From NCBI GenBank assembly GCA_025356395.1, contig JANXTA010000084.1, positions 14,659-78,658 of the forward strand: a stretch of 64,000 nucleotides of DNA, read 5' to 3'. The DNA comes from Betaproteobacteria bacterium (GTDB lineage Bacteria > Pseudomonadota > Gammaproteobacteria > Burkholderiales > Burkholderiaceae_D). Position numbers and translations under genes: made by a program. Positions 30,566 through 64,000 of the stretch are shown here, one piece after another. The stretch's first letter is position 1, and every line of letters starts with the position of its first letter. The notes under the pieces are model-generated. The model searched no databases, was not told the origin of the DNA, and worked only from the letters and a program-made list of their open reading frames with translations.

Positions 30566-31645
30566 ATGAGCGACCAGAATATTCTCGTGACCGGCGGCGC
30601 CGGTTTTATCGGCGCAAATTTCGTCCTCGACTGGCTCGGCGCCGAAACCGCAGCGGTGGTGAACGTCGACAAGTTCACGTACGCCGGCAATGCAGAGAAC
30701 CTCGCGTCGGTGGCCAGCAACCCAGCGCACATCCTGGTCCGCGCCGACATCTGCGACCAGGCGGCGATGGACCGTCTGCTGGCGGAGCATCGACCCACCG
30801 CCATCGTGCACTTCGCCGCCGAGTCGCACGTTGACCGCTCGATCCACGGACCGGCCGCCTTCATCGAGACCAACGTCGTCGGGACGTTCCGGCTGCTCGA
30901 GGCCGCGCGCGCTTACTGGGGTTCGCTGGCCGGCCAGGCCCGCGACGACTTCCGCTTCCTGCATGTGTCCACCGACGAGGTCTACGGCTCGCTGAGCGAG
31001 ACCGATGCCCCCTTCTCCGAGACCACGGCCTACGAACCGAACAGTCCGTATTCGGCCTCCAAGGCGGGCTCGGATCATCTGGTGCGCGCGTATCACCACA
31101 CGTACGGCCTGCCGACGCTGACGACCAACTGCTCGAACAACTACGGGCCCTACCAGTTCCCCGAGAAGCTGATCCCGCTGATGATCTCCAACGCCATCGG
31201 CGGCAAGCCGCTGCCGGTCTACGGCGACGGCAAGAACGTGCGCGACTGGTTGTATGTCGGCGACCACTGCGCCGCGATCCGTCGCGTGATGGACAATGGC
31301 CGGCCGGGCGAGACCTACAACATTGGCGGCTGGAACGAGAAGACCAACCTCGAGGTCGTCCATGCGCTCTGCGCGCATCTCGACGGGTTGCGGCCCAAGG
31401 CATCGGGAAGCTACGTCGACCAGATCCAGTACGTGAAGGACCGCCTCGGCCACGACCGGCGTTATGCGATCGACGCCGGCAAGATCGAGCGCGAGCTCGG
31501 CTGGCGTCCGACCGAGACCTTCGAAACCGGGCTCGAGAAGACAGTGCGCTGGTATCTCGACCAGGGAGATTGGGTGGCGCACGTGCTGACCGGCAGCTAC
31601 CGCGACTGGATCGAGACCAACTACGGCACAAAGGTGGCGGCATGA
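30566..31645 (+). CDS. rfbB: dTDP-glucose 4,6-dehydratase
   Basis: [27 protein letters not shown] 30566 chosen. Confidence 0.9.
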
Positions 31646-32556
31646 GCGGGGGCCGCAAGGGCATCATCCTCGCCGGCGGCTCGGGCACGCGCCTGTATCC
31701 GATCACCCGCTCGGTGTCCAAGCAGCTGCTGCCGGTGTACGACAAGCCCATGATTTATTACCCGCTGAGCGCGCTGATGCTCGCGGGCATGCGCCAGATC
31801 CTCGTGATCTCGACGCCGCAGGACACGCCTCGCTTTGTGGAGCTGCTGGGCGATGGATCGCAGTGGGGCCTGCGTCTCGAATACGCGGTCCAGCCGTCGC
31901 CCGATGGGCTCGCACAGGCCTTCGTCATCGGCCGATCCTTCATCGGCGACAGTCCTTCGGCGCTGATCCTCGGCGATAATATCTTCCATGGCCATGATCT
32001 CGCCGCACAACTGCAGCGCGCCAACGCGACCACGCGCGGCGCGACCGTATTCGCGTATCACGTGCAGGATCCGGAGCGCTACGGCGTGGTCGACTTCGAC
32101 GAGGACGGCAAGGCGCTCAGCCTCGAAGAAAAGCCCGCGAAGCCGAAGTCCAACTATGCGGTCACCGGTCTCTACTTCTACGACCAGAAGGTCGCAGAGC
32201 TGGCCGCATCGTTGAAGCCCTCGCCGCGTGGCGAGCTCGAGATCACCGACCTCAATCGGCTTTACCTCGACGCTGGTGCGCTTGACGTCGAGACGCTCGG
32301 ACGCGGCTTTACGTGGCTCGACACCGGCACGCACGAGTCCCTGCTAGAAGCGGCACAGTTTATCCACACGATCGAGAAGCGGCAGGGACTCAAGGTCGCT
32401 TGCCTCGAAGAGATCGCGTACCACATGGGCTACGTCGACGCGGCGCAGATCGAGGTGCTCGCGAAGCCGCTCCTGAAAAACGAATATGGCCAGTACCTGA
32501 TGCGGATGCTCGGCACACGACCCTCGCCGAAGTCGGTATTTGGCATCGCCGCATGA
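31642..32556 (+). CDS. rfbA: Glucose-1-phosphate thymidylyltransferase
   Basis: [16 protein letters not shown] motif. ATGA overlap with rfbB. Confidence 0.9.
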
Positions 32557-33101
32557 AGGCCATTTCGACTGCGCTTCCCGAGGTCCTGCTGATCGAGCCG
32601 AAGGTGTTCGGCGACGACCGGGGGTTCTTCTTCGAGAGTTTCAACGAGCGCTTCTTCAACGAAGCTGTCGGTCGTCCGGTCACGTTCGTACAGGACAACC
32701 ACTCGCGTTCTGCGAGACATGTGCTGCGCGGCCTGCACTATCAGATCGAGCACACGCAAGGCAAGCTGGTACGCGTCGCGAAAGGATCGGTATACGACAT
32801 CGCGATCGACCTGCGACGCAGTTCGCCGCGCTTCGGACAGTGGATCGGCGTCGAGCTGAGCGAGGCCAACCAGCGTCAGTTGTGGATTCCCGAAGGATTC
32901 GGTCACGGCTTCATGGTGACCAGCGACAGCGCCGACTTCCTGTACAAGACCACCGACTACTGGGCGCCGGCGGCCGAGCGCTGCATCGCGTGGAACGACC
33001 CGACGCTCGCGATCGACTGGCCCCTCAACGGGGCGACGCCGATGGTGTCCGGCAAGGACCACAACGGCACGTTGCTCGTGGACGCCGAAGTCTTCGTGTG
33101 A
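32553..33101 (+). CDS. rfbC: dTDP-4-dehydrorhamnose 3,5-epimerase
   Basis: [23 protein letters not shown] overlap with rfbA. Confidence 0.9.
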
Positions 33102-33991
33102 TGCGCATCCTGCTTCTGGGTACGACCGGTCAGGTCGGATGGGAGTTGCGACGCACGCTTCAGCCGCTCGGCGAAGTCGTCGCGCTTTCCCGCGAGGACG
33201 CGAACTTCCAAAACCCCGGATCTTTACGGGCTTCCTTCGCTTCGGCACCCGACATCGTCGTCAACGCCGTCGCGTATACCGCTGTGGATCAAGCCGAAAA
33301 GGATCCCGAAGGCGCGATGCGGGTGAATGCGGAGGCCGTGGGCATCCTCGCAGACGAAGCGAAGAAACGGGCTGCCCTGTTGATCCACTACTCGACCGAT
33401 TACGTGTTCGACGGCACCAGCGCCGTTCCCTACTCCGAGGACGCCACCACGGATCCTCAATCCGTCTACGGACGCAGCAAGCTCGCGGGTGAGCAGGCGA
33501 TCACTGCTTCCGGCTGCGACCATCTGGTGCTTCGGACCAGTTGGGTGTTCGCCTCCCGCGGCAAGAACTTCGTACGGACCATCCTGCGTCTCGCGGCTGA
33601 GCGCGAATCGTTGCGGATCGTCAGCGACCAGTATGGCGCGCCAACCTCGGCCAGGCTTATCGCCGACTGCACTGCTCGCATCATCGATCAGGCGATGCGC
33701 GAGCGCGCCGCCGCTTCGTTCCGGTCCGGGATCTTCCATCTCACCGCCAGCGGACGCACCTCGTGGCACGGTCTCGCGACACGTATCGTCGAGCGCGCGC
33801 GCGAGATCGATAACGCATCGCTCAGGACCAACGCGGTCGACGCGATCCCGAGCAGCGCATATCCGGTGCCAGCGAGGCGACCGGAAAATTCATCCCTCGA
33901 CACCGCGCGCGTCTGTCAGCGCTTCGGCCTTCATCTGCCGGACTGGACGGTCGGTCTCGACCTCTGTCTCGACGAATTGCTGGCGCCATGA
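33101..33991 (+). CDS. rfbD: dTDP-4-dehydrorhamnose reductase
   Basis: [30 protein letters not shown] overlap with rfbC. Confidence 0.85.
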   Translation: MRILLLGTTGQVGWELRRTLQPLGEVVALSREDANFQNPGSLRASFASAPDIVVNAVAYTAVDQAEKDPEGAMRVNAEAVGILADEAKKRAALLIHYSTDYVFDGTSAVPYSEDATTDPQSVYGRSKLAGEQAITASGCDHLVLRTSWVFASRGKNFVRTILRLAAERESLRIVSDQYGAPTSARLIADCTARIIDQAMRERAAASFRSGIFHLTASGRTSWHGLATRIVERAREIDNASLRTNAVDAIPSSAYPVPARRPENSSLDTARVCQRFGLHLPDWTVGLDLCLDELLAP

Positions 33992-34818
33992 GCCGGCACG
34001 CCGCACACCGCACTTCGCCCGCCGCGCTGGTTGAAAGTCTGTGGTCCAACCGTGCGCTGATCGGCCAACTCGTGAAGCGCGAGATCCTTGGCCGCTATCG
34101 TGGCTCGGTGCTCGGCATCGCATGGTCGTTCTTCAATCCCGTGCTGATGCTGGTCGTCTACACCTTCGTTTTCAGCGTGGTGTTCGAAGCGCGGTGGGGC
34201 GCCAGCACGACCAGCAGTCGCGCTGACTTCGCGATGCTCCTTTTCATCGGTCTGATCGTACATGGCTTCTTCGCCGAATGCCTGACACGCGCTCCGGCCC
34301 TGATCCTCGAGAACGTCAACTTCGTGAAGAAAGTCGTGTTCCCACTCGAGATCCTGCCCCTGGTCGTGATGGGATCGGCGCTGTTCCACAGCCTCATCAG
34401 CTTGCTCGTCCTCGGCATCGCGCTGGTGCTCTCGCACGGAGGCTTGCCGGTCACGGTGCTCTACGCCCCGGTTGTCTTCGTGCCCCTGGTTCTAGCGACG
34501 GCCGGCTTCGCATGGTTCCTCACGGCGCTCGGCGTCTTCGCGCGCGACGTGAAGCAGGTGATCGGCGTCGTGATGACGATCCTCCTATTCCTGTCGCCGG
34601 TCTTCTATCCGATCTCATCCGTGCCGGTCGCCTTCAGACCGTGGCTGCTGGCGAATCCGTTGACGTTCATCATCGAGCAGTCGCGAGCCGTGCTGTTTTT
34701 CGGCAATGGCCCGGACTGGATCGGCCTGGCTCTCTACGCCGGCACCAGCGCGGTCGTTGCATGGCTCGGCTTCGCGTGGTTCCAGAAAACGCGCAAAGGC
34801 TTCGCAGATGTTGCATGA
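33988..34818 (+). CDS. wzm: Polysaccharide ABC-2 exporter permease
   Basis: ILGRYRGSVLGIAWSFFNPVLML is the N-terminal signature of Wzm/TagG-type permeases. Six TM segments. ATGA overlap with rfbD. Confidence 0.8.
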   Translation: MSRHAAHRTSPAALVESLWSNRALIGQLVKREILGRYRGSVLGIAWSFFNPVLMLVVYTFVFSVVFEARWGASTTSSRADFAMLLFIGLIVHGFFAECLTRAPALILENVNFVKKVVFPLEILPLVVMGSALFHSLISLLVLGIALVLSHGGLPVTVLYAPVVFVPLVLATAGFAWFLTALGVFARDVKQVIGVVMTILLFLSPVFYPISSVPVAFRPWLLANPLTFIIEQSRAVLFFGNGPDWIGLALYAGTSAVVAWLGFAWFQKTRKGFADVA

Positions 34819-36052
34819 GGCCACTGCAACGAGCGTACCGTCGATCAGGATCGACGGCCTGTCGAAGTGCTATCAGATTTACGCGCAGCCACGCGATCGG
34901 CTTAAGCAGTTCGTGATGCCGCGATTGCGTCGCGCGGCCGCGCTGAAACAGCGTGACTACTTCCGCGAGTTCTGGGCATTGCGCGACTTTTCGCTGACGG
35001 TGAACCGCGGCGAAACGGTGGGCATCATCGGCCGCAACGGGTCGGGCAAGTCGACGCTGCTCCAGCTCGTGTGCGGAACGGTAACGCCTACGTCGGGATC
35101 GATCGACGTCGAGGGTCGCGTCGCGGCCCTGCTGGAACTCGGTGCGGGTTTCAATCCTGAATTCACCGGCCGGGAAAACGTCGTGCTCAATGCGGCGGTC
35201 CTCGGTATCGATGCGGCCATCATGGAAACCAAGTTCGCTCACATCGCGGCATTTGCGGATATCGGGCCGTTCATCGACCAGCCGGTGAAGACGTATTCGA
35301 GCGGCATGCTGGTCCGTCTCGCGTTCGCGGTGGCGATCCACGTCGAGCCGAAGGTGCTGATTGTCGACGAGGCACTCAGCGTCGGCGACTTCGCTTTCCA
35401 GAACAAGTGCGTCCAGCGACTGCGCAAGATGCGGGACGAAGGCGTGACCCTGCTGTTCGTGTCGCACGACCTCAACACCGTTCAGACCATCTGTGACCGG
35501 GTCGTCTGGCTCGAACATGGCCGGGTGGTGATGGCTGGCAACCCGATCGAGGTCTGCCAGGAATACCAGGTCTCGATGCTCGGCAACGAAGCACCGACGC
35601 CCAGTCAGGTCAGCGATTTCATCAGCCAGCAGAACACCGGCATGGCCCGCTTCGTCGACCTACGCATCACCGACCTGCCGAGCGGCGGCGACCGCACCTT
35701 CGTGCTCGGCGATGCGATCCGCTTCCGGTTCACGCTCGAAGCCGACGTTTCCCTCGACGACATCGTCTTCACGATCAGCATCTATCGCGCGGATGGAGAT
35801 TGGGTCATCGGGCAAACCAGCCGCGAGGCGGGTGTCGTGTGGGCCGGTGTGAATGCCGGCGAACGCGTCACCGGCAGCCTGCAACTCAAACCCCTGTGCC
35901 TGGTACCCGGCGATTATGTCGCCGCGTTCTCCGCATGCTCCACCGATCTCGCGCTGTGCTACGCGCTGACGGATCTCAACATTCGCTTCTCGGTCAGGTC
36001 TCCGCATCCGACCTGGGGCCGATTCGCCCATCCTGCAACATGGATTCAATAG
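34808..36052 (+). CDS. wzt: Polysaccharide ABC exporter ATP-binding protein with C-terminal extension (putative glycan-cap-binding domain)
   Basis: Walker A GRNGSGKSTL, signature YSSGMLVRLAF, Walker B VLIVDEALSVGD. A ~165-aa beta-rich extension lies beyond the NBD (RFVDLRITD...FTISIYRADGDWVIGQTS). Overlaps wzm by 11 nt. Confidence 0.8.
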   Translation: MLHEATATSVPSIRIDGLSKCYQIYAQPRDRLKQFVMPRLRRAAALKQRDYFREFWALRDFSLTVNRGETVGIIGRNGSGKSTLLQLVCGTVTPTSGSIDVEGRVAALLELGAGFNPEFTGRENVVLNAAVLGIDAAIMETKFAHIAAFADIGPFIDQPVKTYSSGMLVRLAFAVAIHVEPKVLIVDEALSVGDFAFQNKCVQRLRKMRDEGVTLLFVSHDLNTVQTICDRVVWLEHGRVVMAGNPIEVCQEYQVSMLGNEAPTPSQVSDFISQQNTGMARFVDLRITDLPSGGDRTFVLGDAIRFRFTLEADVSLDDIVFTISIYRADGDWVIGQTSREAGVVWAGVNAGERVTGSLQLKPLCLVPGDYVAAFSACSTDLALCYALTDLNIRFSVRSPHPTWGRFAHPATWIQ

Positions 36053-39000
36053 TCAAGAGTGGACCCGCGAACGCGATCGGGAAACCGCGCTGCCCGGTCT
36101 GTCGTTCGCGCCACGTCGTCACCCTGTGCGACGTCGACGGGTATCACGTCTGGCGATGCCCGGCCTCAGCCACCGACTTCGTGTGGCCGGCGCCGGATGA
36201 CGAGGAACTGAAGCGCTATTACGACCGTGCCGGCTGGTTCGAAGGCGGCGAGCGTGGCGGCTACGCGAGCTACGACGCGCAGACGGCTGGATCGCTGCCG
36301 ATGATCGCCGAGGTGCTCGATGCGTTCGCGGATCGGCAGGCCGGGCAATATGTGCTCGACGTCGGATGCGGTTATGGCAACCATCTCGCGATCGCCGCCG
36401 ATCGGGGCTGGAAATGCTTCGGCGTCGAAGTGTCGGATCACGCGCGCGGGATCGCGTCCGAGCGTCATAGCGATCGCATGACACTGGTCCCGACCATCGA
36501 GGAACTGGTCCCGCACGAGTTCGATCTCGTGCTGATGCTCGACATGATCGAGCACGTCGCCGATCCGTACGCGCTGTTCTTCCGCCTCTTCAATCGCGGA
36601 CTGATCGGACCGAAGACGCGCCTCGTCATCACGACGCCGAACGCGCGTTCGATCGATGCCGTCGAAGGTGCGGGTCAGTGGCAGTACCGTCATCCTCCGT
36701 CGCACCTGGTCTACTACTCGGCGCGTTCGCTGCGGCGCCTGCTCAGCAATTTGCAGTTCGCCGACATTCAGGTGCGCGGGACCAGCCCGCTCGCGCGAAA
36801 GGGTAGACGCGGCTACGAAGACGAGACGCTGTCGAGCAACGAATCGCTGCAAGACGACGCCGGGTTGCTGTGTGTGGCGAACGGCAGCCGCTTCTTCGGC
36901 TTCATGCAGGAGCGCTACGTCCCCGGCACCTGGTCCAAGCTCGCCGAATACGAACATCTTCCGCGCTACCAGTTCGCGCGCCGGTTCGCGGTCGACAAGA
37001 TCGTGCTGGACTTCGGCTGCGGCACCGGCTACGGGTCACGCCTGCTCGCTGACGTGGCCCAGAGCGTCGTCGGCCTCGACATCGACCGCGCGGCGATCGA
37101 CTGGGCCACGTTATGGCACGACCCCGCGCGCCTCGCGTTCGACTGCCGCAACGACCTCGGCGCCGGCTTTCAGTCGGGCTCGTTCGACCTCGTGACCTGT
37201 TTCGAGATGATCGAGCACGTCGACCATGCCACTCAACTCGAGACCATCCGCAACATCGCCCGGCTCCTGAAAGCAGACGGGCAGCTCGTGATCTCGACGC
37301 CCAACCCGGCCGTCACCGCCAACTACGGCGAGAACCCGTATCACCTGCGGGAGATGGACGAAGTGTCCTTTCGCCAACTGCTCGCGCCGGTGTTCGCCCA
37401 CGTGTCGATCAAGCGTCAATGGATCCGTCCGTCGGTCGCCATCGGCTCGATCGACGTCGGCGTGCTCAACAGCATGGTCGTCGACTTCCTGCCCGCCGCC
37501 CGTCTTTATGGCGAGCCCGCGGCTTACGTCGCGATCTGCTCGCAAGCGCCGGTCGACGCCGTCGATACCTTCCTGACGCTCGACTCATCGGCGGACTTCT
37601 TGCTCGTCGAGCTGCGCCGTCAACAGGCCGAGACCGCGCTGCGTCTCGAACGGTACGCGATGCAGGAGCGCTCGATGAACGCGGTCGCTCAAGCGTCGCA
37701 ACAGCTTGCAGAACGCGAGAAGCTTCTTGAGTCGATTATCGACAAAAACCGCGGACTCGACGAACAGGCGCGACAGCTGGTAGAGGCGGAACTCCAGCGG
37801 ATGGCGTCTGAGAACAGACAACGTGCCGAACACGCGAAGATCCTCGCGTTGCTCGAGGAGAAGAACCGCGGCCTCGACGCGCAAGCCCGCCAGCTCGTCG
37901 AGATGGAAAGTAATCGGGTCGAAAAGGAACGTCTCTTTGCGCTCCAGGCCGGCGACATCGCTGGCCTGAAAGACGAAATTGCAGAAGCGCACCTGCAGCT
38001 GAAAGACGAAATCGCCAAAGCTCTACGGCTCGCGCAAGATCATGACACCGAGACTGCGGTGCTCCGCGGCCAAATCGCGTCGCTGCAAGAACGCATCAAA
38101 GAACTGACCCCGTGGTGGTTCAAAGTCGCGCGCCGACTGCGCCGCCAGCCCGTGAACTTGGATGCAGGTTCGGTTTCCACGATCGGAATCGCGCCACCCG
38201 AATCGACGGCAATCGCGACCGCGGTGCGTCCCACATTCGCCGCCTACACGGTTAAGCAACCGACATTGGTCGAGACCCATCGTCCCCGCGTGCTGCATGC
38301 GATCGCCAATTTCATGACCGGCGGATCGTCGCGCCTCGTCGTCGACCTGATCGAAAGACTGGGCGGCGACTTCGAGCAGCGGATCGTCACGAGTTTCGTA
38401 CCGAAGCCCCCCGAGTATCTCGGCGTCGACATCACCGAGCTCCCGATAGGGACGTCCCGGGACCGTATCGCGCAGGTCGTCGCGGCCTTCGAACCCGCCC
38501 TCGTCCACATCCACTATTGGGGCGATTGCGACGAACCGTGGTACCGCGAAGTATTCGCCGCCGTCGCACGGCAGGAGATACCGATCGTGCAGAACGTCAA
38601 CACGCCGGTCGCGCCCTTCGTCGACACGCGCAGCGACCACGTGGTCTTCGTCAGCAGCTACGTCCGCGAAACCTTCGGCAGCGGCGTGGAAAGCGGCGAA
38701 GTGATCTATCCCGGCTCGGACTTCGAGCATTTCGAGCGACGCAGTGACCTGCTCGACAACCGCTGCGTCGGCATGGTCTATCGCCTCGAGGCCGACAAGC
38801 TGAACGCATCGGCGATCGACGTGTTCATCCGCATCGCCCAGGCCTTGCCGGACGTCGTCTGCCTGATCGTGGGAGGTGGAAGCTTGCTCGAACCGTTCAA
38901 GGCGAGCGTGCGGGCCGCTGGCTGCGAGGCCTCGTTCGAATTCACCGGTTACGTGAGCTACGAGGCTCTGCCCGCGCTCTATGCACGCATGGGCCTGTTC

Positions 39001-55928: not shown

Positions 55929-55956
55929 TGCCGGCTTCCGGTCGGCGCCGCTGACG

Positions 55957-57159
55957 ATGGATTTCCGATACGTCGCACTCAATGGTCAGGGACAGACGAT
56001 CAAGGGCTCGCTGGAAGCTCGCGACCTCGCTGAGGCGCAGCGCATCCTGCGCCAGCAGGAATTGCGGCCGATCGCGCTCGATCCTGCGCGCGCCGCGAGC
56101 CGATCCTGGTGCACAGGCAAAACAACGGTCGGACGCAAGGACCGCATCTTGCTGGTCCGCGAACTAGCGACGCTGCTGCGAGCCGGCGTGACGCTCTCGG
56201 AAGCCACCGAATCGATCGCCGATACGCACGGCGAGGATGCGGTCGGAACCACCTTTCGCGCGCTGCACACCGCGTTGCGCTCCGGAGAGGCTTTCTCGCG
56301 CGTTCTGCAGAAGGCAGACATCGACTTCCCGTCGTACGTCCATCAACTCGTGGCTGCCGGCGAATCGACGGGCAAGCTCGCACAGGCATTGTTCTCGGCA
56401 GCAGACCAGCTGGAATACGAGGACGGCATTCGCCGCGAGATGATCAATGCGTTGATCTATCCATCGGTGCTGGTTTTTTCCGGGCTGGCCGCGACCCTCC
56501 TGATCTTCATCGTCGTCGTGCCGCGCTTCGCGGGGATGCTCTCCAATACCAAGGCCGATCTGCCTACCCTGTCGGTGGTCGTGTTGCAGACCGGCCTATT
56601 CGTGAAAACGCATCTGCTCACCGTCGGTCTCGTAGTAGCGGCTGCGATCGGTTCGGTGGTGGTCGCGTTCGGCAACCAGGCCACGCGTGCGCAGATGCTC
56701 GAGGGGGTCGCTCGCATGCCGCTTATGGGGCCGTGGATACGCCGGACCGAACTCGGGCGCTGGTCCGGCATGCTGGCGACGTTGCTGGACAACAAGGTAC
56801 CGATCGTCCGCGCGCTCGAATTATCTCAGGCGAGCGTGCAACTGCACTCTTTGCGCAACACCCTGGAGGTCATCCAGAAGGACACCCGTGCCGGCATCAA
56901 GCTCGCCGATTCGCTGTCGACCCATCGGTTGCTGGACGCCACGGGCATCAATCTGGTCCGAGTCGGCGAGCGCTCGGGCGAGCTTCCGAGCATGCTGCGC
57001 ACGCTGTCGTCGATGCACGTCAACGCGAGCCGTGACCTGATGAAGCGCTTCCTGCTGCTGCTCGAGCCGGCCGCGATTCTGGTGATAGGCTCTTTCATCG
57101 GGCTCATCATGGTCGCCATCATGCTGGCGATCACGAGCATCAACAACATTCCGCTTTAG
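55957..57159 (+). CDS. gspF: Type II secretion inner-membrane platform protein GspF
   Basis: 400 aa, duplicated GspF domain, three TM segments, typical N-terminus MDFRYVALNGQGQTIKGSLEA. Confidence 0.85.
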   Translation: MDFRYVALNGQGQTIKGSLEARDLAEAQRILRQQELRPIALDPARAASRSWCTGKTTVGRKDRILLVRELATLLRAGVTLSEATESIADTHGEDAVGTTFRALHTALRSGEAFSRVLQKADIDFPSYVHQLVAAGESTGKLAQALFSAADQLEYEDGIRREMINALIYPSVLVFSGLAATLLIFIVVVPRFAGMLSNTKADLPTLSVVVLQTGLFVKTHLLTVGLVVAAAIGSVVVAFGNQATRAQMLEGVARMPLMGPWIRRTELGRWSGMLATLLDNKVPIVRALELSQASVQLHSLRNTLEVIQKDTRAGIKLADSLSTHRLLDATGINLVRVGERSGELPSMLRTLSSMHVNASRDLMKRFLLLLEPAAILVIGSFIGLIMVAIMLAITSINNIPL

Positions 57160-57185
57160 CGTCGCTAATCCAGGCGGCTCGTTCC

Positions 57186-57617
57186 ATGCATAGCAAACAA
57201 ACTGGTTTCACCCTGATCGAGATGCTGGTCGTCCTGGCCATCATCGGACTCCTCGCTTCACTGGTCGGGCCGCGGCTGTTCTCGAAAGTCGATACCTCGA
57301 AGGTCCAGACGGCGCAGACGCAGGTCAAAATGCTCAAGGGCGCGCTCCAGACCTTGCGTCTCGACATCGGCCGGTTCCCCACACAGTCCGAAGGTCTGGC
57401 GATCCTCACCACGTCACCGACTTCGGACGACATCCGCGCAAAGTGGAAAGGCCCCTACCTCGACGAGGCACTTCCGGCCGACCCTTGGGGAAACCCTTAT
57501 CAGTACACCGTGCAGAGCGGCTCCGTAAAGCCTTTCGCGCTCTACTCTTTCGGAGCCGACGGCAAGGCGGGCGGCGAGGGGATCGACGCAGATGTCGGCG
57601 ATCTTCCAGATCGCTGA
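57186..57617 (+). CDS. gspG: Major pseudopilin GspG
   Basis: Prepilin signal GFTLIEMLVVLAIIGLLA, DPWGNPYQY, and the C-terminal GADGKAGGEGIDADVG calcium-loop pattern. Confidence 0.9.
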   Translation: MHSKQTGFTLIEMLVVLAIIGLLASLVGPRLFSKVDTSKVQTAQTQVKMLKGALQTLRLDIGRFPTQSEGLAILTTSPTSDDIRAKWKGPYLDEALPADPWGNPYQYTVQSGSVKPFALYSFGADGKAGGEGIDADVGDLPDR

Positions 57618-57633
57618 ATCCGGCCACTGCAGG

Positions 57634-58047
57634 ATGCGGTCGCATGCGAAGGCCGAGGCTGGTTTCACGCTGCTCGAAATCCTCGTGGTTCTCGCGATCG
57701 GCGCGCTCGTCATTGCCACCGTCATTCCGGCCATGGGACGAGTGGTCGACGCGGTGACATACGACAGCGAGTTGCAGGATGTCGTCGGGCAACTCGATCA
57801 ACTTGGGTTTCGCGCATTCACGAGCGGCAAGCCGATCGTGCTGGCTGATGGCACGCCGCAAACCATCGCGACTGCAGGACTCGATCTGCCGCGTGCCTGG
57901 TCCCTGTCAATCTCTCGTCCGATTCATTTCAACTCTGTCGGCATGTGCGACGGAGGCAGCGTTTCCGTGACCGCGCCAGACGGTCGAACGACGGCGCTTC
58001 AACTGGCGGCTCCCGACTGCGCCGCGACGCGAGCGACGAACCGATGA
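57634..58047 (+). CDS. gspH: Minor pseudopilin, GspH-like
   Basis: Prepilin signal AGFTLLEILVVLAIGALV. Position after gspG. ATG 57634 chosen. Confidence 0.6.
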   Translation: MRSHAKAEAGFTLLEILVVLAIGALVIATVIPAMGRVVDAVTYDSELQDVVGQLDQLGFRAFTSGKPIVLADGTPQTIATAGLDLPRAWSLSISRPIHFNSVGMCDGGSVSVTAPDGRTTALQLAAPDCAATRATNR

Positions 58048-58490
58048 CCCGCACGCCACATCGAGGCGCCGAGGGCTTCACGTTGCTCGAGGCGATTGTG
58101 GCGCTGGTCATTTTCAGTACCGCGGGCCTCGCACTGTTCTCGTGGATCAACCAGAACCTTCAGGCACTCGTGCGCGTCGCCGACGTCAGCGCCGAAGCAC
58201 AGGCGAAGCGCAACATCCTCGAGTACATGAACGAGATCAACCCGATGGATCGAGCCACCGGTACCAACGACTTCGGTACCTACAAGATCGCATGGACGAG
58301 CACCGAGGAGATCACGCCGCGCGCGAACGCGGGTTACCCGATCGGCGAAGGCGCCTTTCTGGTCGGCCTCTATCGCGATTCGATCGCGGTCACGCGTCCA
58401 AGCGGTGCGCCTTGGTTTACCTTCGATCTGCGCCTGGTCGGCTTCCGTCGGGCATTTCTGCCCGCGCAGCAAAGCGGCCGGGGCGGCTGA
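58044..58490 (+). CDS. gspI: Minor pseudopilin, GspI-like
   Basis: EGFTLLEAIVALVIFSTAGLALF. ATGA overlap with the preceding gene. Confidence 0.65.
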   Translation: MTRTPHRGAEGFTLLEAIVALVIFSTAGLALFSWINQNLQALVRVADVSAEAQAKRNILEYMNEINPMDRATGTNDFGTYKIAWTSTEEITPRANAGYPIGEGAFLVGLYRDSIAVTRPSGAPWFTFDLRLVGFRRAFLPAQQSGRGG

Positions 58491-58493
58491 GCG

Positions 58494-59129
58494 ATGCGGA
58501 TGAAACGTCGTGGGGCAAACCGGGGATTCACGCTGATCGAGATACTGGTCGTTATGATTCTCGTCAGTATGATCGTCACAGTCCTGTTCCAGGGACTCGC
58601 GCAGGCGATTCGCATCCGCAGCAGCGCCGGCATCGAGACAGCACAAGTCGCGCGCGAAGCGATGCGGCGTGTCTGGTATCGGCAACTCATCAACGGCCTG
58701 ATTCCCGACGATGAAAACGGCACTGCCATCTTTCAGGGGGGCCCGACCTCGTTCAGGGGCCAGTCGACGAACGCGATCGATTTTGACACCGGAGCCGTGC
58801 TGCCGATCACGGTGACGCTCGAGGTCGACGCGGCGTCCGACAGCACCATCGTCCGCGTGACGACCCGCTCCGTGGCAGTCGGGCCGCACGAAATCGCCTT
58901 GCTCTCTCTGCCTGGAATGAACTTCGCGTTCGCCTATGTAGACACCGACGCGAGCCAGAGCTCGGTCTGGCCGCGGCGCGTCATCGGCAAGGCGCCGCAA
59001 CTGCCTTCGGCCATCTGGATCGTCGACGGGTCGGGCAACCAATCGACCGAGCTGTTGACCGGCTCGATCCTCGGTCGTCGCGATGCCGTTGGCGGCCTGC
59101 CCGCACTGCTCAAACTTCAGCAGGAATGA
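58494..59129 (+). CDS. gspJ: Minor pseudopilin, GspJ-like
   Basis: RGFTLIEILVVMILVSMIVTVLF. Size and position fit GspJ. Confidence 0.55.
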   Translation: MRMKRRGANRGFTLIEILVVMILVSMIVTVLFQGLAQAIRIRSSAGIETAQVAREAMRRVWYRQLINGLIPDDENGTAIFQGGPTSFRGQSTNAIDFDTGAVLPITVTLEVDAASDSTIVRVTTRSVAVGPHEIALLSLPGMNFAFAYVDTDASQSSVWPRRVIGKAPQLPSAIWIVDGSGNQSTELLTGSILGRRDAVGGLPALLKLQQE

Positions 59130-59136
59130 GCGGTCC

Positions 59137-60177
59137 ATGAAAGCGTCGATCCACAGAAGTCGGCAAGAAGGCTTTGTGCTGGCACTGACCCTGTGGGTCC
59201 TGGTCGCCATCATGATCACCGCGACCTTCTTTGCCAGTCGCGTCGAGCGCGCCGTTAGCCTGGCCAGCGACTTCCGCGCGGCCACGGATGCAGAGGTGGA
59301 GATGGCGAGCGTTCGCGCGGACCTCCTGCAGCGCTTGTCCACCACGCATCTCACAACGTTCGGTGCTGGCTCCGGTGATCCTGAGACAACGCTCCGCCTG
59401 GATGACCGACGCTATCGGAGCGGCCCTGCCAGCGAAGTCAGCCTGCAGGATGCGCGTGGCTTGATCAACGTCAACATCGTCGATGCGGAGACGTTGACCC
59501 GATTGCTCGGTCCGTTCGGCATCGATGCGCGCGAGGCCGACCGGCTCGCAGACACCCTCGCGGATTACATCGATCCCGACTCGTTGCGGCGCCTGAATGG
59601 TGCCGAAGCTCCTGAGTATCTCGCCGCCCGCCTGCCCCCACCGCGCAATGCGCCGCTCGTGAGCACCCGCGAACTGCGCCGCGTGATTGGATGGCGCGAT
59701 CACGTCGCACTGATCGACGACCCGGCATTCATTGACCTGTTGACCGCCGGTGAAGCAACCGGACTGAATCCGAACACTGCACCGCTCGCAGTCCTGCGCA
59801 CGCTGCCGAATGTCACGCAGGAGCTCGCGAATGCAATCGTCGCCGACCGGAACGGCCAACCGTACGCATCGTCCGCGCTCTTTTCCACCGTGATCGGTGC
59901 CGATGCCATCTTTTCGATGACGCGGCTGAACGCGTTCCCGTCGACCAGCATGCGGATCACCCAGTCGGTCCCGGGCCGCGGGTGGGCGCTACGCTATGAT
60001 GTCGAGCTATTGCCGACTGGCGAAGTCGCGCCATGGCGAATCGAGCATGTCCTGCGCGTCGAACGTCCGCCCGCCCCCAGCGACCACGACGCGACCGGTA
60101 ATCCGGTCGACCAGAGCGCCGCCCAGACGCCCGCCTTGCCCAAACGCCCCAGCGATGTCGTTACTGACCGGCCCTAA
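59137..60177 (+). CDS. gspK: Minor pseudopilin GspK
   Basis: N-terminal hydrophobic helix lacking Glu5 (QEGFVLALTLWVLVAIMI), LQDARGLINVN, and the helix-hairpin-helix-like GLNPNTAPLAVLRTLPNV typical of GspK. Confidence 0.75.
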   Translation: MKASIHRSRQEGFVLALTLWVLVAIMITATFFASRVERAVSLASDFRAATDAEVEMASVRADLLQRLSTTHLTTFGAGSGDPETTLRLDDRRYRSGPASEVSLQDARGLINVNIVDAETLTRLLGPFGIDAREADRLADTLADYIDPDSLRRLNGAEAPEYLAARLPPPRNAPLVSTRELRRVIGWRDHVALIDDPAFIDLLTAGEATGLNPNTAPLAVLRTLPNVTQELANAIVADRNGQPYASSALFSTVIGADAIFSMTRLNAFPSTSMRITQSVPGRGWALRYDVELLPTGEVAPWRIEHVLRVERPPAPSDHDATGNPVDQSAAQTPALPKRPSDVVTDRP

Positions 60178-61237
60178 ATTCCTGAACACATCGGCCTCGG
60201 CGATCCCGCTTCGCACGGGCTCGCGATGGATGCCGACGGAATGGATTCTGTCGCGTGCACTCTGCCGATACCGCGTGCTGGATTTTGCCGAAGTGCCGAG
60301 GTCCAAACGCGTGGCCGCCCTTCGACTCCAGCTGTCCCAGTTCGCTCCGTTTGCCGAACCGGGCTATGCGGTCGCATGGGAAGGTGCCGCCGCGCAGGTC
60401 TGGTGTTGGGACGACGCCAAGCTGCGAGAGGCCACGCGTGGCGCCGACGTCTTGTCCAGCCGCATCCGCATTGTCCCGGAACCGCTCTATTTCCTGCCGC
60501 TGACCGATGGTCCCAGGCTCTTGAAGGTGACCGAGGGCTATGAAGGTCAGGTGTGGAAAGGCAATACCTTGGTCCGCTCGCGCTTCTGGATGACCCAGCC
60601 CGCTGTTCCGGAGTGGATCGCATTTCAGCGCGACGCGGGCATCCTTCCCGACCAGCAGCAACCACACCCGGCGGCTCTCGAAAGAGAGTTGCTTGCACAG
60701 CCGTACACCAGAGCCGACATTGGTCTGTACGCCGCGACCGGATTGAGCCTGGCCGAGCCGGTCCTGCTGTTCGTGCTCATCGCTGCGTTGGGTACCAGTT
60801 CCGCTTGGTACCTGACGCGCTACTGGAAGATCTCGTCGCGAAGCGACCAATTGACCGCGCAGTTCAAGTCGTTGGAAAGCATCGCTGCGCCGGTGCTCGC
60901 CGCGCGCGAACGCGCCATCGACAATCAGGTCTTTGCCAGCCAGCTCGCGCGGATCTCGGCCTTCCCCGACCAATTGTCGCTGCTCGCCGCATTCGCCAGC
61001 GCGTTCAACAGCGATGGCGTCGTTTTGCGCGACTGGAACTTCAACCTGGGTAAGCTCCGCGCCACCGTTGCGTTCCCGAACGCTTTGCCACCGGCGTCTA
61101 ACGTGGTGACTGCGGTGCAAGAGCAGAGCGCCTTCACCAATGTGCGCGTCGCGCCCGGCAACGAACCGAAATCGCTCGTGATCAACGCGAACGTCAACCC
61201 GATCTTCAAGAGCGATCGTGAACAACCTCATTCTTGA
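60155..61237 (+). CDS. Bitopic assembly-platform protein, GspL-like
   Basis: Cytoplasmic region of ~220 aa, a single TM (LAEPVLLFVLIAALGTSSAWYL), then a ~110-aa periplasmic domain. Its position between gspK and the gspM-like gene fits GspL. Sequence assignment is weak, and an alternative ATG lies at 60230. Confidence 0.4.
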   Translation: MSLLTGPKFLNTSASAIPLRTGSRWMPTEWILSRALCRYRVLDFAEVPRSKRVAALRLQLSQFAPFAEPGYAVAWEGAAAQVWCWDDAKLREATRGADVLSSRIRIVPEPLYFLPLTDGPRLLKVTEGYEGQVWKGNTLVRSRFWMTQPAVPEWIAFQRDAGILPDQQQPHPAALERELLAQPYTRADIGLYAATGLSLAEPVLLFVLIAALGTSSAWYLTRYWKISSRSDQLTAQFKSLESIAAPVLAARERAIDNQVFASQLARISAFPDQLSLLAAFASAFNSDGVVLRDWNFNLGKLRATVAFPNALPPASNVVTAVQEQSAFTNVRVAPGNEPKSLVINANVNPIFKSDREQPHS

Positions 61238-61826
61238 ACTGAAGGCCAATCAACGACTGCGGATCGGCCTCTTGCTGATCGTCTCGATAGTCTGGTTCTA
61301 TGGCGTACTTGAACTGCGCGATCGATCCGATGCGGCGGCACAGGGCCTCGCCGTCCAGGCAAGGCAGGTGTTCCGTCTTCAGCAGCAAAGCGCACAATCC
61401 GGCTGGCTGGACGCGGCCCGTACCTCCGATGAACGACGCGCGGAAGTTGAAAAGGTCTTGTGGACAACCGACTCGCCTGGCAGCGCCAACGCAGCATTGC
61501 AGGATTGGTTGCAGGAAAAGGCGAGACTGGCGGGCATCCCTATTCTACAAGTGACATTCGCTGATGCAGTCGATGCCGGACCCTTCGGCGCGTCGGTGCG
61601 CGTCGACAAGGCCGACAATCTCCCGAGTGGGATCAGCAAGGTCAAGGGGCGCATGAACTTCGACTTCGATGGCACGACCTTCGACCGTTTCATGGCGTCC
61701 GTGAACATGGACGAACATCCGATCTTCGTGGAAAGCCTCACCGTCCGCAATCTGGCACCCGGTCGGGCGGAAATCCAGTTCTATGCGTTGGCACGCATCG
61801 GCATCGCCAAAAAGGTGACGCCTTGA
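61218..61826 (+). CDS. Bitopic protein, GspM-like
   Basis: Short N-terminus, one TM (LRIGLLLIVSIVWFYGVL), and a ~150-aa periplasmic domain. The call is by position only. Confidence 0.4.
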   Translation: MNNLILELKANQRLRIGLLLIVSIVWFYGVLELRDRSDAAAQGLAVQARQVFRLQQQSAQSGWLDAARTSDERRAEVEKVLWTTDSPGSANAALQDWLQEKARLAGIPILQVTFADAVDAGPFGASVRVDKADNLPSGISKVKGRMNFDFDGTTFDRFMASVNMDEHPIFVESLTVRNLAPGRAEIQFYALARIGIAKKVTP

Positions 61827-61877
61827 ATCACTCGTGCGATTCGAGAATAATGCGGGCCGCCTCATGAATTGCATCCG

Positions 61878-62318
61878 ATGATCCGTGCAGTCGTTTCAGG
61901 CCTTGCCATCACATTGGTTCTGGGCCTGTTGTTTCTCCTGACCCCAGCCGAGCAGGCCGCCCGAACCCAGCGTGGTGTCGCGCCTCCGGAAGTGATCGAC
62001 TCGAACTTTCCCGCTCAGCCTTCGACGAGGGACTCGGTCGCGAAAATCGAGGCGGCCAACCTCTGGGGCAACGTGCCGACGCAGGCCGCAGCCAGCGCCG
62101 AGATAATCACAGGAAAAATCATCGGCGCCGTCAGCACGCGCGATACGAAATACGTTCTGCTGCAGGTCGGCAAGCAGACGCCGATCGAGCTCAAGGTGGG
62201 TGATGCTCTCCCGGTCCAGATCGAGCCGTTCGCAGGCGGTCAGATCGTCGAAATCCGCTCCGACCGCATCACGGTCCAAAAAAATGGCGAGAAGTACGTG
62301 CTCTCGGTCACCAATTGA
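61878..62318 (+). CDS. Small bitopic protein, GspC-HR/PilP-like
   Basis: One TM (AVVSGLAITLVLGLLFLL) and a C-terminal beta-rich segment IIGAVSTRDTKYVLLQVGKQTPIELKVGDALP...IVEIRSDRITVQKNGEKYVLSV that resembles the secretin-binding HR domain. No PDZ. An in-frame TTG at 61869 is an alternative start. Confidence 0.35.
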   Translation: MIRAVVSGLAITLVLGLLFLLTPAEQAARTQRGVAPPEVIDSNFPAQPSTRDSVAKIEAANLWGNVPTQAAASAEIITGKIIGAVSTRDTKYVLLQVGKQTPIELKVGDALPVQIEPFAGGQIVEIRSDRITVQKNGEKYVLSVTN

Positions 62319-64000
62319 TGGTCAATTCCTCGAAGTCGTTCGCGTTCCGCTGTGTGGCGACTTTGTTCGCTCTCGGCCTCGCGGCCTGTTCACAATTTCC
62401 GGTGTCGGTAATTCCAGTGCCGCTTCGCCCCGCAGCACATCCGGAGACGACCTCCGCCGTCGCGCCGGCGGAGGAGGCGAGCCGTGAAATCACGATCGCG
62501 AAGGTTGCGGCGCCCCCGTTTCCCGCGTCCGCCGATGCCGTGCGCTCCTCCAGCACCCCGCCCCTGTCGAATCGCCTGAGCGACGCGACCATCTCGTTCA
62601 CGTTCCAGCAGCTCGCGTTGCCCCAATTCGCGCAGCTCGTCTACGGCACGATCCTCAAGCGGGCGGTGACGTTCGACCCGGCTGTCGCCGCACGCACCGA
62701 TCTCGTCACGATTCGGACCGGCAAGCCCCAGACTCCCGCGGAAATCGAACAGATCACGCGCGCACTGCTCAAGAGCTACGGCGTAGCGGTGATCGAGACG
62801 GGAAGCTTCGTACGGATCGTGCCGGACGCAGCGGCCCTGGGCTATTCGCCGTTGATCAAACGCGGACGCGCACTGCCCGAAACGCCTGAAGCCCTACGTC
62901 CCGTCTTTCAGCTGATCGAGATGCAGGCAGTGCCGGTGCAGCAGGCGACGGGCCAGCTGCGATTGATGTTCGGCTCACGTATCCAGATCTTGGACGACGT
63001 GCCGCGTAACGCGGTGCTGATCGGGGGCCAGGGCGACGACATCGCTGCGGTCATCGAGGCAATCCGGGTGCTTGACCAGCCTCTGATGAAAGGCCGCAAC
63101 GCGATCAAGATCACACCGGTGTACTGGTCGGTGGAAGATCTGTCTCGCCGGATCGGCGAGTTGTTGTCTGCACAGGGATATGCCGTGAGCAATCCTGCCA
63201 TCCAAGGCCAGACCGGCCCGATCCAACTCGTTCCCATCCCGGCGATCAACACGCTCTTCGTGTTCGCCGTCGATCCGAAGCTGGCGGACTACGTCTCGCA
63301 ATGGGCCAAGGAACTCGACCGTCCATCGAGTCGTGGAACGGGTGCGGGATACTTCACCTATCCGGTCAAGCACATCGACGCAGAGTCCCTCGCCAAGACC
63401 ATTCAGGCCCTGATTGATGGAGCTCCTGCATCAGCGACCACGACGACCAACTCGACGCAAACCGGTGCGGCGGGCCAGATCCAGGCCGGAACCACTGCAC
63501 CGCGCCGCTCGAGGGTTGTCGTCAACGCGGCGAGCAACACACTCATCTTCCAGGGGAGCGCCGAGGAATATGCGCAATGGATCGGACTGTTGCAGGAACT
63601 CGATCGCCCCGCGAAGTCAGCGCTGGTGGAAGTGACAGTCGCCGAGATCACCCTCGACGACAGCACGCAGCTCGGGGTGCAGTGGTACAACCTTTTTCGC
63701 AACGGGACCAACATCGCATCGCTGGGCGGCGCCGCCCTCGGGCTGCTGCCGAACGTCAACGCCGCGGGGTTCACCTTCACCCGTGTCGATAGTGCAGGAC
63801 AGGTGCGGGCGGCGATCAACCTTCTCGCGTCGACGGGCAAGGCGCGCGTGCTGTCGACGCCGCGCATCATGGCGCGCAACGGCGAGACGGCGACTATTCA
63901 GGTGGGTCAGGAAATTCCGATCGTCACGAGCAACCTCAGCAATGCCAATACTGGCGGCGTTGGCGGGGTCCTTCAGACGATCCAGTACCGCAGCACCGGC
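62318..64000 (+). CDS. gspD: Type II secretion secretin GspD, lipoprotein-type signal peptide (3' end beyond the window)
   Basis: ATG 62318 overlaps the preceding stop (TGATG), and the frame stays open for 561 codons to the window edge. The N-terminus MVNSSKSFAFRCVATLFALGLAAC has a LAAC lipobox. N0-type domain (FAQLVYGTILKRAVTFDP) and secretin core (ALVEVTVAEITLDD, VLSTPRIMARNGETATIQVGQEIPIVT). Confidence 0.85.
   Translation, partial: MVNSSKSFAFRCVATLFALGLAACSQFPVSVIPVPLRPAAHPETTSAVAPAEEASREITIAKVAAPPFPASADAVRSSSTPPLSNRLSDATISFTFQQLALPQFAQLVYGTILKRAVTFDPAVAARTDLVTIRTGKPQTPAEIEQITRALLKSYGVAVIETGSFVRIVPDAAALGYSPLIKRGRALPETPEALRPVFQLIEMQAVPVQQATGQLRLMFGSRIQILDDVPRNAVLIGGQGDDIAAVIEAIRVLDQPLMKGRNAIKITPVYWSVEDLSRRIGELLSAQGYAVSNPAIQGQTGPIQLVPIPAINTLFVFAVDPKLADYVSQWAKELDRPSSRGTGAGYFTYPVKHIDAESLAKTIQALIDGAPASATTTTNSTQTGAAGQIQAGTTAPRRSRVVVNAASNTLIFQGSAEEYAQWIGLLQELDRPAKSALVEVTVAEITLDDSTQLGVQWYNLFRNGTNIASLGGAALGLLPNVNAAGFTFTRVDSAGQVRAAINLLASTGKARVLSTPRIMARNGETATIQVGQEIPIVTSNLSNANTGGVGGVLQTIQYRSTG

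Follow-up and report, generated by a model that had tools for sequence, protein, structure and literature searches.

A candidate surface-coat island joining a Thr/Ser-rich secreted protein to a type II secretion system and an O-polysaccharide cluster in an uncultured Burkholderiales-like bacterium

We analysed a stretch of 64,000 nt (the window; contig JANXTA010000084.1) from an uncultured Burkholderiales-like bacterium. Its second half combines four sets of genes: a cluster for synthesis and ABC-type export of an O-polysaccharide (module 1), a putative glycan-decoration module with three GT-C-type glycosyltransferases (module 2), the gene of a 503-aa Thr/Ser-rich secreted protein, here termed P503 (module 3), and a type II secretion system (T2SS; module 4). 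Gene calling relied on frame bias in the GC content of third codon positions (GC3), on scans against Pfam and NCBIfam, and on the genes called for an identical public contig (L001). The scans and gene calls agree with a first-pass annotation of this DNA in that the four modules are contiguous, at the coordinates of Table 1, and have no unrelated genes between them. The genes which that annotation placed at the start of module 1 were also found as described; the glycan region begins earlier, however, from a family 2 glycosyltransferase (GT2) gene at 26957 onward.

The P503 precursor starts with a Sec signal peptide (residues 1-23). Its mature form has a mass of 47.5 kDa and a pI of 4.9 and contains 15 % Thr, 13 % Ala, 11.5 % Ser and 10 % Gly (Ser plus Thr 27 %), but no Cys, Trp or Met. 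Such an acidic composition rich in Thr, Ala, Ser and Gly is typical of surface-layer (S-layer) proteins. Neither Pfam and NCBIfam nor the PDB sequences yielded a match for P503; a Pfam scan at E<=1 of all 22 family members from a word-index protein search and a profile search of the PDB sequences returned nothing meaningful, and tblastn against 72,556 plasmids gave no match. The word-index search had pointed to a rare family of 22-24 proteins, an idea overturned by an exhaustive hidden Markov model (HMM) search, which superseded that count with 876 cluster representatives at E<=1e-3 and 202 at E<=1e-30. Judged by these homologues, P503 is the founding member of a common, unnamed protein family. 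The AlphaFold2 (AF2) model (mean per-residue confidence, pLDDT, 76.5) is all-beta and forms a chain of several beta-sandwich domains with low-confidence loops rich in Ser, Thr and Ala. No S-layer structure was among the PDB fold matches of this model; a single Foldseek match of ~95 columns to an ASRT fold is a lead that we do not use as support for sugar binding. We regard P503 as a candidate S-layer or surface-coat protein and as the likely cargo of the adjacent T2SS.

The P503 gene is monocistronic, with a strong terminator of its own and a conserved leader. Directly after the stop codon lies the intrinsic terminator AAAAGGCGGCCTCGGCCGCCTTTTTTTT, which a consensus terminator scan missed and which was confirmed by eye and by folding: the 92-nt terminator stretch folds at -34.3 kcal/mol (z -3.8), and none of 200 shuffled sequences folds as well. 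Upstream of the start codon, ~240 nt are kept at the DNA level in four loci (the window, L004, L006 and L007), whose proteins are only 57-79 % identical. This leader contains an inverted repeat (TGTTGC..GCAACG), the -10-like element CATAATCC, a GCGCG..CGCGT hairpin and the ribosome-binding site TAGGGA. A consensus scan of the P503-gspE spacer revealed no sigma-70 promoter, Rfam returned chance-level matches and no family, and RNAalifold detected weak covariation among the four sequences, from which we claim no RNA element; the leader could be an operator combined with a stabilising 5' leader. Glycine is encoded in P503 by 24 GGT versus 20 GGC and no GGG codons, and among the window genes tabulated (where the xanA row was out of frame) P503 ranks first in its share of four-fold codons ending in T. 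This codon usage may be a sign of high expression, the window being without a ribosomal-gene reference set.

Divergent from P503, eleven gsp genes (E-F-G-H-I-J-K-L-M-C-D) precede the end of the window, which cuts gspD (732 aa on L001). The N-terminus of GspE carries an MshEN-type motif for cyclic di-GMP (c-di-GMP) at residues 43-95 (~54234-54392; NF053729, 54.5 bits against a cut-off of 38), and this motif is kept in four relatives (L004-L007). Because GspE carries it, export by this T2SS is probably switched by c-di-GMP. The GspD N-terminus, MVNSSKSFAFRCVATLFALGLAAC, was recognised as a lipoprotein signal peptide with the lipobox LGLAAC, and lipoboxes are also present in relatives (LQAC in L005, MGAC in L014). 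By this signature GspD is a liposecretin of the HxcQ-like class, with predicted acylation. Score and lipobox thus bear out the first-pass description of a c-di-GMP-motif T2SS with a liposecretin. The window also encodes a TPR-GGDEF diguanylate cyclase (20483-22429, plus strand), ~32 kb upstream of gspE.

For comparison we used each relative whose flanking DNA could be fetched. P503 and T2SS genes are adjacent in all eight informative loci (the window, L004, L005, L006, L007, L008, L010 and L014), and a glycan cluster lies beside the P503-like gene in every locus long enough to judge, across 24-79 % identity to P503; in three loci (the window, L014 and L015) it includes a wzt gene. The closest relative, L006 (79 % identity), has, in this order, T2SS, P503, a methyltransferase gene of the PKMT family (see below) and GT-C. 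In L004 and L007 (57 % each), gspE/T2SS genes and P503 are accompanied by PKMT, a further methyltransferase, a membrane protein (with a weak GT87 match and DUF6311) in L004 or a 567-aa open reading frame (ORF) without a Pfam match in L007, a GT2 and large WbsX/GT2/GT4 enzymes. The P503-like gene of L005 (30 %) lies within the T2SS cluster, which is flanked by GT4s, epimerases and an acyltransferase. L008, a Rhodoferax metagenome-assembled genome (MAG) with a C-terminal match only, shows T2SS, metalloprotease, P503-like, GT2, GT4, epimerase, GT2/GT4 and acyltransferase genes; L014 (40 % over the C-terminal quarter only) has T2SS, P503-like, DUF4189, methyltransferase, wzt (with Wzt_C) and wzm. 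L010, a Hyphomicrobiales MAG (30 %), has a P503-like gene followed by gspE, and L015 (24 %), whose contig is cut upstream, contains P503-like, acyltransferase, wzt, GT4 and sulfotransferase genes. The linkage of P503, T2SS and glycan genes is real and far beyond chance. As to a conserved synteny of all four modules, P503, the T2SS and some glycan cluster stay together, whereas the GT-C genes of module 2 are not seen within the flanks of L005, L008 and L014. The recurring neighbourhood supports one of two options raised in the first-pass annotation, namely a surface protein tied to the O-chain as in Aeromonas.

Two of these loci showed further peculiarities. In L004, a DDE_3 transposase gene (3-1088, minus strand) directly follows gspE at the place expected for gspF, and the T2SS cluster may be disrupted there. 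In L005, the secretin gene is separated from the sugar epimerase genes by soxY and soxZ (2735-3624, minus strand), a hint that the host may oxidise sulfur.

The best-conserved part of the P503 family in our alignment (A1) is a C-terminal domain of ~115 aa with the motifs YVPAA, RVxNTG, IEAAxG and RPRLRF. This modular domain, found in A1 and in the HMM search, had been missed in the first-pass annotation and is absent from the searched Pfam and NCBIfam copies. It occurs once in the window, twice in tandem on a reprolysin-like metalloprotease of L008 (5888-8626, minus strand), whose gene is placed between the T2SS and the P503-like gene, and four times on a propeller protein of L009, a Polaromonas MAG (4118-6844). 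In the exhaustive HMM search it was present in 2-4 copies on many proteins of 600-1400 aa (P0145-P0290), the N-terminal parts of which are trypsin-like, subtilase (S8) or M6 peptidases, RCC1/NHL/YncE-like propellers or arrays of immunoglobulin (Ig)-like domains. A terminal module that is repeated and common to a coat protein and exoproteins is the pattern of surface-anchoring domains such as SLH. The conserved position at the protein end, the tandem copies on secreted proteases and propellers, and the location of P503 genes always beside glycan clusters suggest, by this analogy, that the domain may act as a cell-surface anchor.

Between GT-C paralogues 2 and 3 lies the gene of a 490-aa protein without a signal peptide, previously annotated as a plain methyltransferase. 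The assignment holds as far as it goes, but the protein is more specifically a homologue of the outer-membrane-protein lysine methyltransferases (PKMT family): a phmmer search of PDB sequences matched residues 2-478 of 490 to Rickettsia PKMT1 (5dnk, E 1.5e-82), with PKMT2 following at E 2.9e-71, and Pfam returned MethyTransf_Reg (75 bits) and PKMT_2nd (52 bits), so that the homology is full-length and includes the regulatory and winged-helix domains. In L004, L006 and L007 the PKMT gene is located directly downstream of the P503 homologue. The rickettsial enzymes PKMT1 and PKMT2 target lysine residues of OmpB, a surface protein, for methylation (PMC8232902); apart from OmpB, the family has one known substrate, the Acinetobacter adhesin AtaA, which is modified by KmtA (PMC11784438). 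As in these systems, where the substrates are abundant and surface-exposed, the gene in the window neighbours that of a presumed major surface protein; unlike OmpB and AtaA, the candidate substrate is a predicted T2SS cargo with 7 Lys and no autotransporter. The immediate adjacency in three relatives and the surface-protein substrates of the enzyme family make it plausible that the PKMT homologue acts on P503, which would then be a third kind of PKMT substrate.

The core of module 1 consists of rmlBACD, which by homology is the gene set for dTDP-L-rhamnose synthesis (Pfam matches with E 1e-70 to 1e-100; start and stop codons of neighbours overlap), followed by wzm and wzt. Wzt ends in a C-terminal carbohydrate-binding domain (CBD) according to Pfam, and by their domains Wzm and Wzt are the ABC exporter of a capped O-polysaccharide. 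The 1087-aa protein encoded next contains two S-adenosylmethionine (SAM)-dependent methyltransferase domains, a coiled-coil-like segment of ~180 residues (ORF residues ~600-780, located by a crude composition scan and not by a dedicated predictor) and a GT4 domain. By analogy, we consider it a candidate chain terminator or capper with a built-in ruler, WbdD/WbbB-like in logic, and the following GT4 a candidate backbone transferase. Wzm, a Wzt with CBD and a terminator enzyme with a coiled-coil-like spacer together make up an end-capped O-polysaccharide pathway. In E. coli O8/O9a, this pathway involves the WbdD terminator and the Wzt CBD, and WsaE of Geobacillus is comparable. The window shares with them the C-terminal CBD of Wzt and methyltransferase domains joined via a coiled coil to a glycosyltransferase; from this combination, the chain end is probably methyl-capped and the chain length measured. 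Unlike WbdD, the terminator of the window has two methyltransferase domains and no kinase, with the GT4 fused in the same polypeptide, and the polymer is probably a rhamnan instead of the mannan of O8/O9a. Directly upstream lie waaA, a heptosyltransferase gene, the GT2, an epimerase and a phosphoglucomutase/phosphomannomutase gene with two candidate start codons (30369 or 30468), so that the setting fits an O-antigen locus.

Module 2 encodes a flippase-like membrane protein, a GT2 fused to a SAM methyltransferase (GT2-MT) and three membrane paralogues of ~725 aa without a Pfam or NCBIfam match. The nearest NCBIfam models for the GT2 domain of GT2-MT are AglJ, PpgS and dolichyl-P hexose transferase, every one below its cut-off. 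The AF2 model of paralogue 2, built on a 40-sequence alignment (A2; pLDDT 87.1, predicted template-modelling score, pTM, 0.84), shows a many-helix membrane domain and a periplasmic C-terminal domain ending in a beta-sandwich. Foldseek matched it, with probability 1.0 each, to STT3 (8age_A, E 9.5e-6), ArnT (5f15, E 1.3e-5) and EmbB, at template-modelling (TM) scores of 0.39-0.49 for STT3 and ArnT and 0.20-0.29 for EmbB; through this fold of one paralogue the earlier GT-C label of the three proteins is borne out. The terminal beta-sandwich resembled the Wzt CBD (8dky/6o14), the domain by which Wzt reads methylated O-chain caps. The residue D41 of the motif PPIYDA, in the first extracytoplasmic loop, is invariant in the 40 sequences of A2, and we infer that it is the catalytic acidic residue. 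By contrast, none of the three proteins had a PMT match in Pfam, and no PMT chain was among the top 50 Foldseek matches. The analogy to Ppm1/PMT protein O-mannosylation drawn in the first-pass annotation is therefore weak, the fold matches being STT3, ArnT and Emb; with no PMT signature, and with the trio of GT-C, GT2-MT and flippase-like protein also occurring without P503 or a T2SS, we ranked this type of protein mannosylation low.

Homologues of the GT-C family were found in polysaccharide clusters (rml genes, GT4s, methyltransferases) of Nostoc sp. UIC 10890 (L012) and of two metagenomic organisms (L011 and L013), with neither P503 nor a T2SS nearby. GT2-MT stands alongside GT-C in all three, and an LPG_synthase_TM gene does so in L011 and L013, with none within the L012 locus. 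By its gene content the trio looks like a recurrent, undescribed glycan-decoration module. Its occurrence in clusters devoid of P503 and T2SS, together with distant P503 loci that lack GT-C, indicates that module 2 travels with the polysaccharide and not with the protein; judged from this distribution, it more likely decorates the ABC-exported O-polysaccharide in the periplasm than glycosylates P503. The ~730-aa GT-C family often comes as two or three tandem paralogues, in phylogenetically distant bacteria.

In Gram-negative bacteria, Gtr and gmlABC systems decorate O-antigens outside the cytoplasm. On the streptococcal rhamnan, the GacI/GacJ/GacK/GacL system adds side chains by a GT-C enzyme, using a polyprenyl-phosphate sugar made by a GT2 (10.1101/180810; PMC8035078). 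The window likewise encodes together a DPM1/GtrB-like GT2, a membrane translocator and GT-C enzymes, the combination that in the Gac, Gtr and Gml systems acts on a finished rhamnan or O-chain. In contrast to these systems, its GT-C family is unnamed and present as three tandem paralogues, its GT2 is fused to a methyltransferase, and its putative flippase is of the LPG_synthase_TM (MprF-like) type, different from GtrA or Wzx.

Table 1. Genes and other features of the island and its upstream flank, with window positions, strand and basis of assignment
Feature	Position	Strand	Evidence
LPS-core genes waaA and heptosyltransferase	24461-26994	-	Pfam
GT2 glycosyltransferase	26957-27973	+	Pfam
NAD-dependent sugar epimerase/dehydratase	27970-28977	+	Pfam
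Phosphoglucomutase/phosphomannomutase (XanA/AlgC-like), divergent from rmlB	28987-30369	-	PGM_PMM domains I-IV
rmlB	30566-31645	+	Pfam
rmlA	31642-32556	+	Pfam
rmlC	32553-33101	+	Pfam
rmlD	33098-33991	+	Pfam
wzm	33988-34818	+	ABC2_membrane 103 bits
wzt (ORF)	34706-36052	+	ABC_tran 86 bits; Wzt_C 46 bits
1087-aa methyltransferase-methyltransferase-coiled-coil-GT4 protein	36040-39303	+	Pfam; start ATG 36040
GT4 glycosyltransferase	39300-40664	+	Glycos_transf_1 99 bits; Glyco_trans_4_4
Flippase-like membrane protein (LPG_synthase_TM / TIGR00374)	40705-41727	-	Pfam 119 bits; NCBIfam TIGR00374
GT2 (polyprenyl-phosphate sugar synthase-like) fused to SAM methyltransferase	41777-43342	-	Glycos_transf_2; Methyltransf_23
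GT-C paralogue 3, 726 aa	43398-45578	-	34 % identity to modelled paralogue, full length, E 4e-101; invariant Asp of A2 shared
PKMT-family methyltransferase homologue, 490 aa	45637-47109	-	phmmer against PDB; Pfam
GT-C paralogue 2, 731 aa (modelled)	47259-49454	-	AF2; Foldseek
GT-C paralogue 1, 722 aa	49474-51642	-	32-33 % identity to paralogue 2, full length; row of A2
Intrinsic terminator of P503	51923-51950	-	By eye; folding
P503, 503 aa	51994-53505	-	Composition, AF2, HMM family, synteny
Conserved C-terminal domain of P503, residues 381-499	52009-52365	-	Alignment A1
P503 promoter/5' leader	53506-53760	-	DNA alignment with L004, L006, L007
T2SS as a whole	54108-64000	+	Pfam, NCBIfam
GspE secretion ATPase	54108-55928	+	T2SSE 454 bits; TIGR02533 560 bits
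GspF	55957-57159	+	Pfam
GspG	57186-57617	+	Pfam
Minor pseudopilins, H/I/J-like	57592-58047, 58044-58490, 58500-59129	+	Pfam; L001 gene calls
GspK	59137-60177	+	Pfam
GspL-like	60230-61237	+	Position and homology to relatives only
GspM-like	61218-61826	+	Position and homology to relatives only
Short GspC-like protein	61878-62318	+	Weak T2SSC match on the L005 equivalent
GspD secretin, continuing past window end	62318-64000	+	Secretin_N; Secretin

The GC content of the window is 0.66-0.69 up to ~28 kb and 0.60-0.65 beyond, and GC3 steps down at the glycan genes, from ~0.85-0.90 (1-28000) to 0.71-0.85 (~28000-64000). The lower values agree with a region of surface-structure genes that is open to exchange; no tRNA gene and no mobile element marks an island border in the window. 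The caveat of the first-pass annotation that a WaaL/PglL-type ligase is missing still holds, no such protein being seen among the window ORFs scanned. Apart from the island, the window encodes an EgtD-like histidine-specific methyltransferase (Methyltransf_33) followed by an EgtB-like DinB_2/FGE-sulfatase protein (9201-11752, plus strand), a pair that by its domains probably serves ergothioneine biosynthesis.

A comparable gene arrangement is known from Aeromonas salmonicida, where a rhamnose-containing O-antigen cluster has vapA and the T2SS genes spsE-L between its wzm and wzt genes (PMC4483657); the Aeromonas S-layer is tethered through lipopolysaccharide (LPS) (PMC4483657; PMC4413209). Like this A-layer island (vapA/ahsA plus Sps), the window has the gene of a ~50-kDa surface protein with a Sec signal adjoining its own, dedicated T2SS set, in the context of a rhamnose-containing O-antigen cluster that depends on an ABC-2 exporter (Wzm/Wzt). 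Unlike it, the island belongs to a Burkholderiales-like host, that is to a different class, and additionally comprises three GT-C enzymes, GT2-MT, their flippase-like partner and the PKMT-family methyltransferase. The MshEN motif and the lipoprotein secretin of the window T2SS may be further differences. A metagenome scan using VapA-for, a published vapA primer, produced at least 120 matches attributable to chance; among those listed, none had the reverse primer or T2SS genes.

A further S-layer protein, NpdA, occurs in many Comamonadaceae as well as in some Gammaproteobacteria, and its gene adjoins 12 gsp genes (PMC10765051). NpdA (Paracidovorax, Delftia and other Beta- and Gammaproteobacteria) resembles P503 as a secreted protein of ~52 kDa that has no known domains, is linked to a T2SS cluster (gsp1) and is conserved across many Burkholderiales; it was shown to form an S-layer, and it differs from P503 in containing Cys. 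In Pseudoalteromonas tunicata, the gene of the S-layer protein Slr4 lies beside a conserved T2SS operon, for which a dedicated role in Slr4 export has been proposed; Slr4, which its authors threaded on RsaA, is also a component of the biofilm matrix (PMC7821379). By its description Slr4 is a protein different from P503, and the part of PMC7821379 consulted mentions no linkage of Slr4 to a glycan cluster or a PKMT. With these precedents from A. salmonicida, NpdA and Slr4, the statement in the first-pass annotation that the gene combination would be undescribed in a Gram-negative was too strong. The layout is already described; new are the protein family, its modular C-terminal domain, the link to a PKMT, the GT-C module and the c-di-GMP and liposecretin traits.

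In our view, an Aeromonas A-layer-type surface-coat island built around a new protein family is the best explanation of the locus, and we hold the whole chain of steps to be slightly better than an even bet. P503 would cross the inner membrane via Sec, for which it has the signal peptide, fold in the periplasm into the modelled chain of beta-sandwich domains, and cross the outer membrane via the adjacent dedicated T2SS. That P503 is the cargo of this T2SS is, given the synteny in all eight informative loci, clearly more probable than the chain as a whole. On the outside of the cell it would stay, most likely as an S-layer-like coat, held by its C-terminal domain. The likely partner would be the co-encoded rhamnose-containing O-polysaccharide, made in the cytoplasm by RmlBACD and the GT4 enzymes; the 1087-aa protein would cap the chain and set its length, and Wzm/Wzt would export it, with the CBD of Wzt reading the cap. 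In the periplasm, the three GT-C enzymes would decorate the chain with a polyprenyl-phosphate sugar supplied by GT2-MT and moved by the flippase-like protein, a chemistry derived from the logic of the WbdD/Wzt, Gtr/Gml and GacI/GacL systems. The PKMT homologue would probably methylate lysines of P503.

Several observations weigh against such a coat island. That P503 forms a lattice, is retained on the surface, binds glycan and is abundant, as the first-pass annotation suggested, are all predictions from the genes of an uncultured organism. Foldseek on the P503 model gives only generic Ig-like (multi-Ig) matches with TM scores of about 0.2. The likeness to VapA is one of gene layout, and membership of P503 in the NpdA family was rejected: with NpdA sequences from the supplement of PMC10765051 (WP_011797163 and orthologues), hhalign gave a probability of 0.6 % for A1 against one NpdA and 6.5 % against ten, and 0.5 % for the C-terminal domain. 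The strong conservation of this domain, next to glycan genes that vary from locus to locus, fits a conserved ligand or a role in secretion or assembly better than binding to a variable O-chain. Neither WaaL nor an initiating transferase is visible in the window. As to lysine methylation, the 7 lysines of mature P503 are few for a PKMT substrate, and the PKMT gene is missing from the loci of the distant subfamily (L005, L008 and L014).

Among the alternatives we rank second a glycosylated S-layer protein, a reading we consider unlikely: GT2-MT, the flippase-like protein and the GT-C enzymes would O-glycosylate Ser and Thr of P503 in the periplasm before export, taking (methylated) sugars off polyprenyl-phosphate. 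It would account for the 27 % Ser plus Thr and the low-confidence Ser/Thr/Ala-rich loops of P503, and for the order P503-PKMT-(methyltransferase)-GT-C-type membrane protein-GT2, which recurs in the same orientation in the close subfamily even where the membrane protein is of another family (GT-C in the window and L006, weak GT87/DUF6311 in L004, no Pfam match in L007). Yet Nostoc and two metagenomic organisms, none of them with P503 or a T2SS nearby, have GT-C and GT2-MT in their polysaccharide clusters, joined by the flippase-like protein except in the Nostoc locus, and L005, L008 and L014 keep the T2SS with no GT-C within their flanks; the failure to match PMT in Pfam or among the top 50 folds and the resemblance of the GT-C C-terminus to the cap-binding Wzt CBD also speak against this reading.

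The clustering might also come about with no physical coupling at all, if surface-structure loci are simply variable, horizontally exchanged regions; the glycan genes would then make an ordinary LPS O-antigen, and the T2SS would export P503 and its relatives as free or loosely attached exoproteins, for instance adhesins or biofilm matrix. The drop in GC and GC3 from ~28 kb, as in exchangeable surface loci, glycan gene content that differs at every locus, and the presence of the T2SS-linked Slr4 in biofilm matrix agree with this reading, but a glycan cluster adjoins P503 at all informative loci over 24-79 % identity, in three cases with Wzt, and tandem C-terminal domains on unrelated exoproteins are hard to explain unless they share a binding or retention role; on balance we think it rather unlikely. 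Least probable of all, in our estimation, is that the C-terminal domain serves this T2SS subtype for recognition or sorting of its cargo, comparable to the C-terminal domain (CTD) of type IX secretion (T9SS) substrates, marking P503, proteases and propellers as one cargo set. The domain is indeed always C-terminal, its sequence is conserved while flanking glycan genes vary, and in L008 the gene of a tagged protease directly adjoins the T2SS on one side and the P503-like gene on the other. An arrangement in two to four tandem copies, however, is typical of avidity-based binding modules and not of sorting signals, the 13-kb L009 locus that encodes the four-copy protein contains no T2SS, and to our knowledge T2SS substrates do not use a linear or domain tag.

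Gram-negative S-layers are known from few protein families, and their anchoring has been solved for a handful. A more far-reaching version of the coat-island reading, which we put forward tentatively and consider doubtful as a whole, is that P503 founds a widespread Gram-negative S-layer family, with the C-terminal domain as an SLH-like diderm anchor that tethers coat, exoproteases and propellers to LPS, with export through a c-di-GMP-gated liposecretin T2SS, and with a coat that is methylated by PKMT as a third substrate class. If true, the design of S-layer, T2SS and O-antigen would extend beyond Aeromonas, NpdA and Slr4 to a family common in environmental Burkholderiales, and the C-terminal domain would become a candidate for a general anchor by which diderms display proteins on their surface. 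Research on T2SSs would gain a defined system that has one cargo and is probably switched by c-di-GMP, and the PKMT enzymes, which are widespread but have hardly any known substrates, a new target open to testing. Together with the GT2-methyltransferase and the MprF-like flippase, the unnamed GT-C family appears to be a recurrent and undescribed decorator of ABC-exported polysaccharides.

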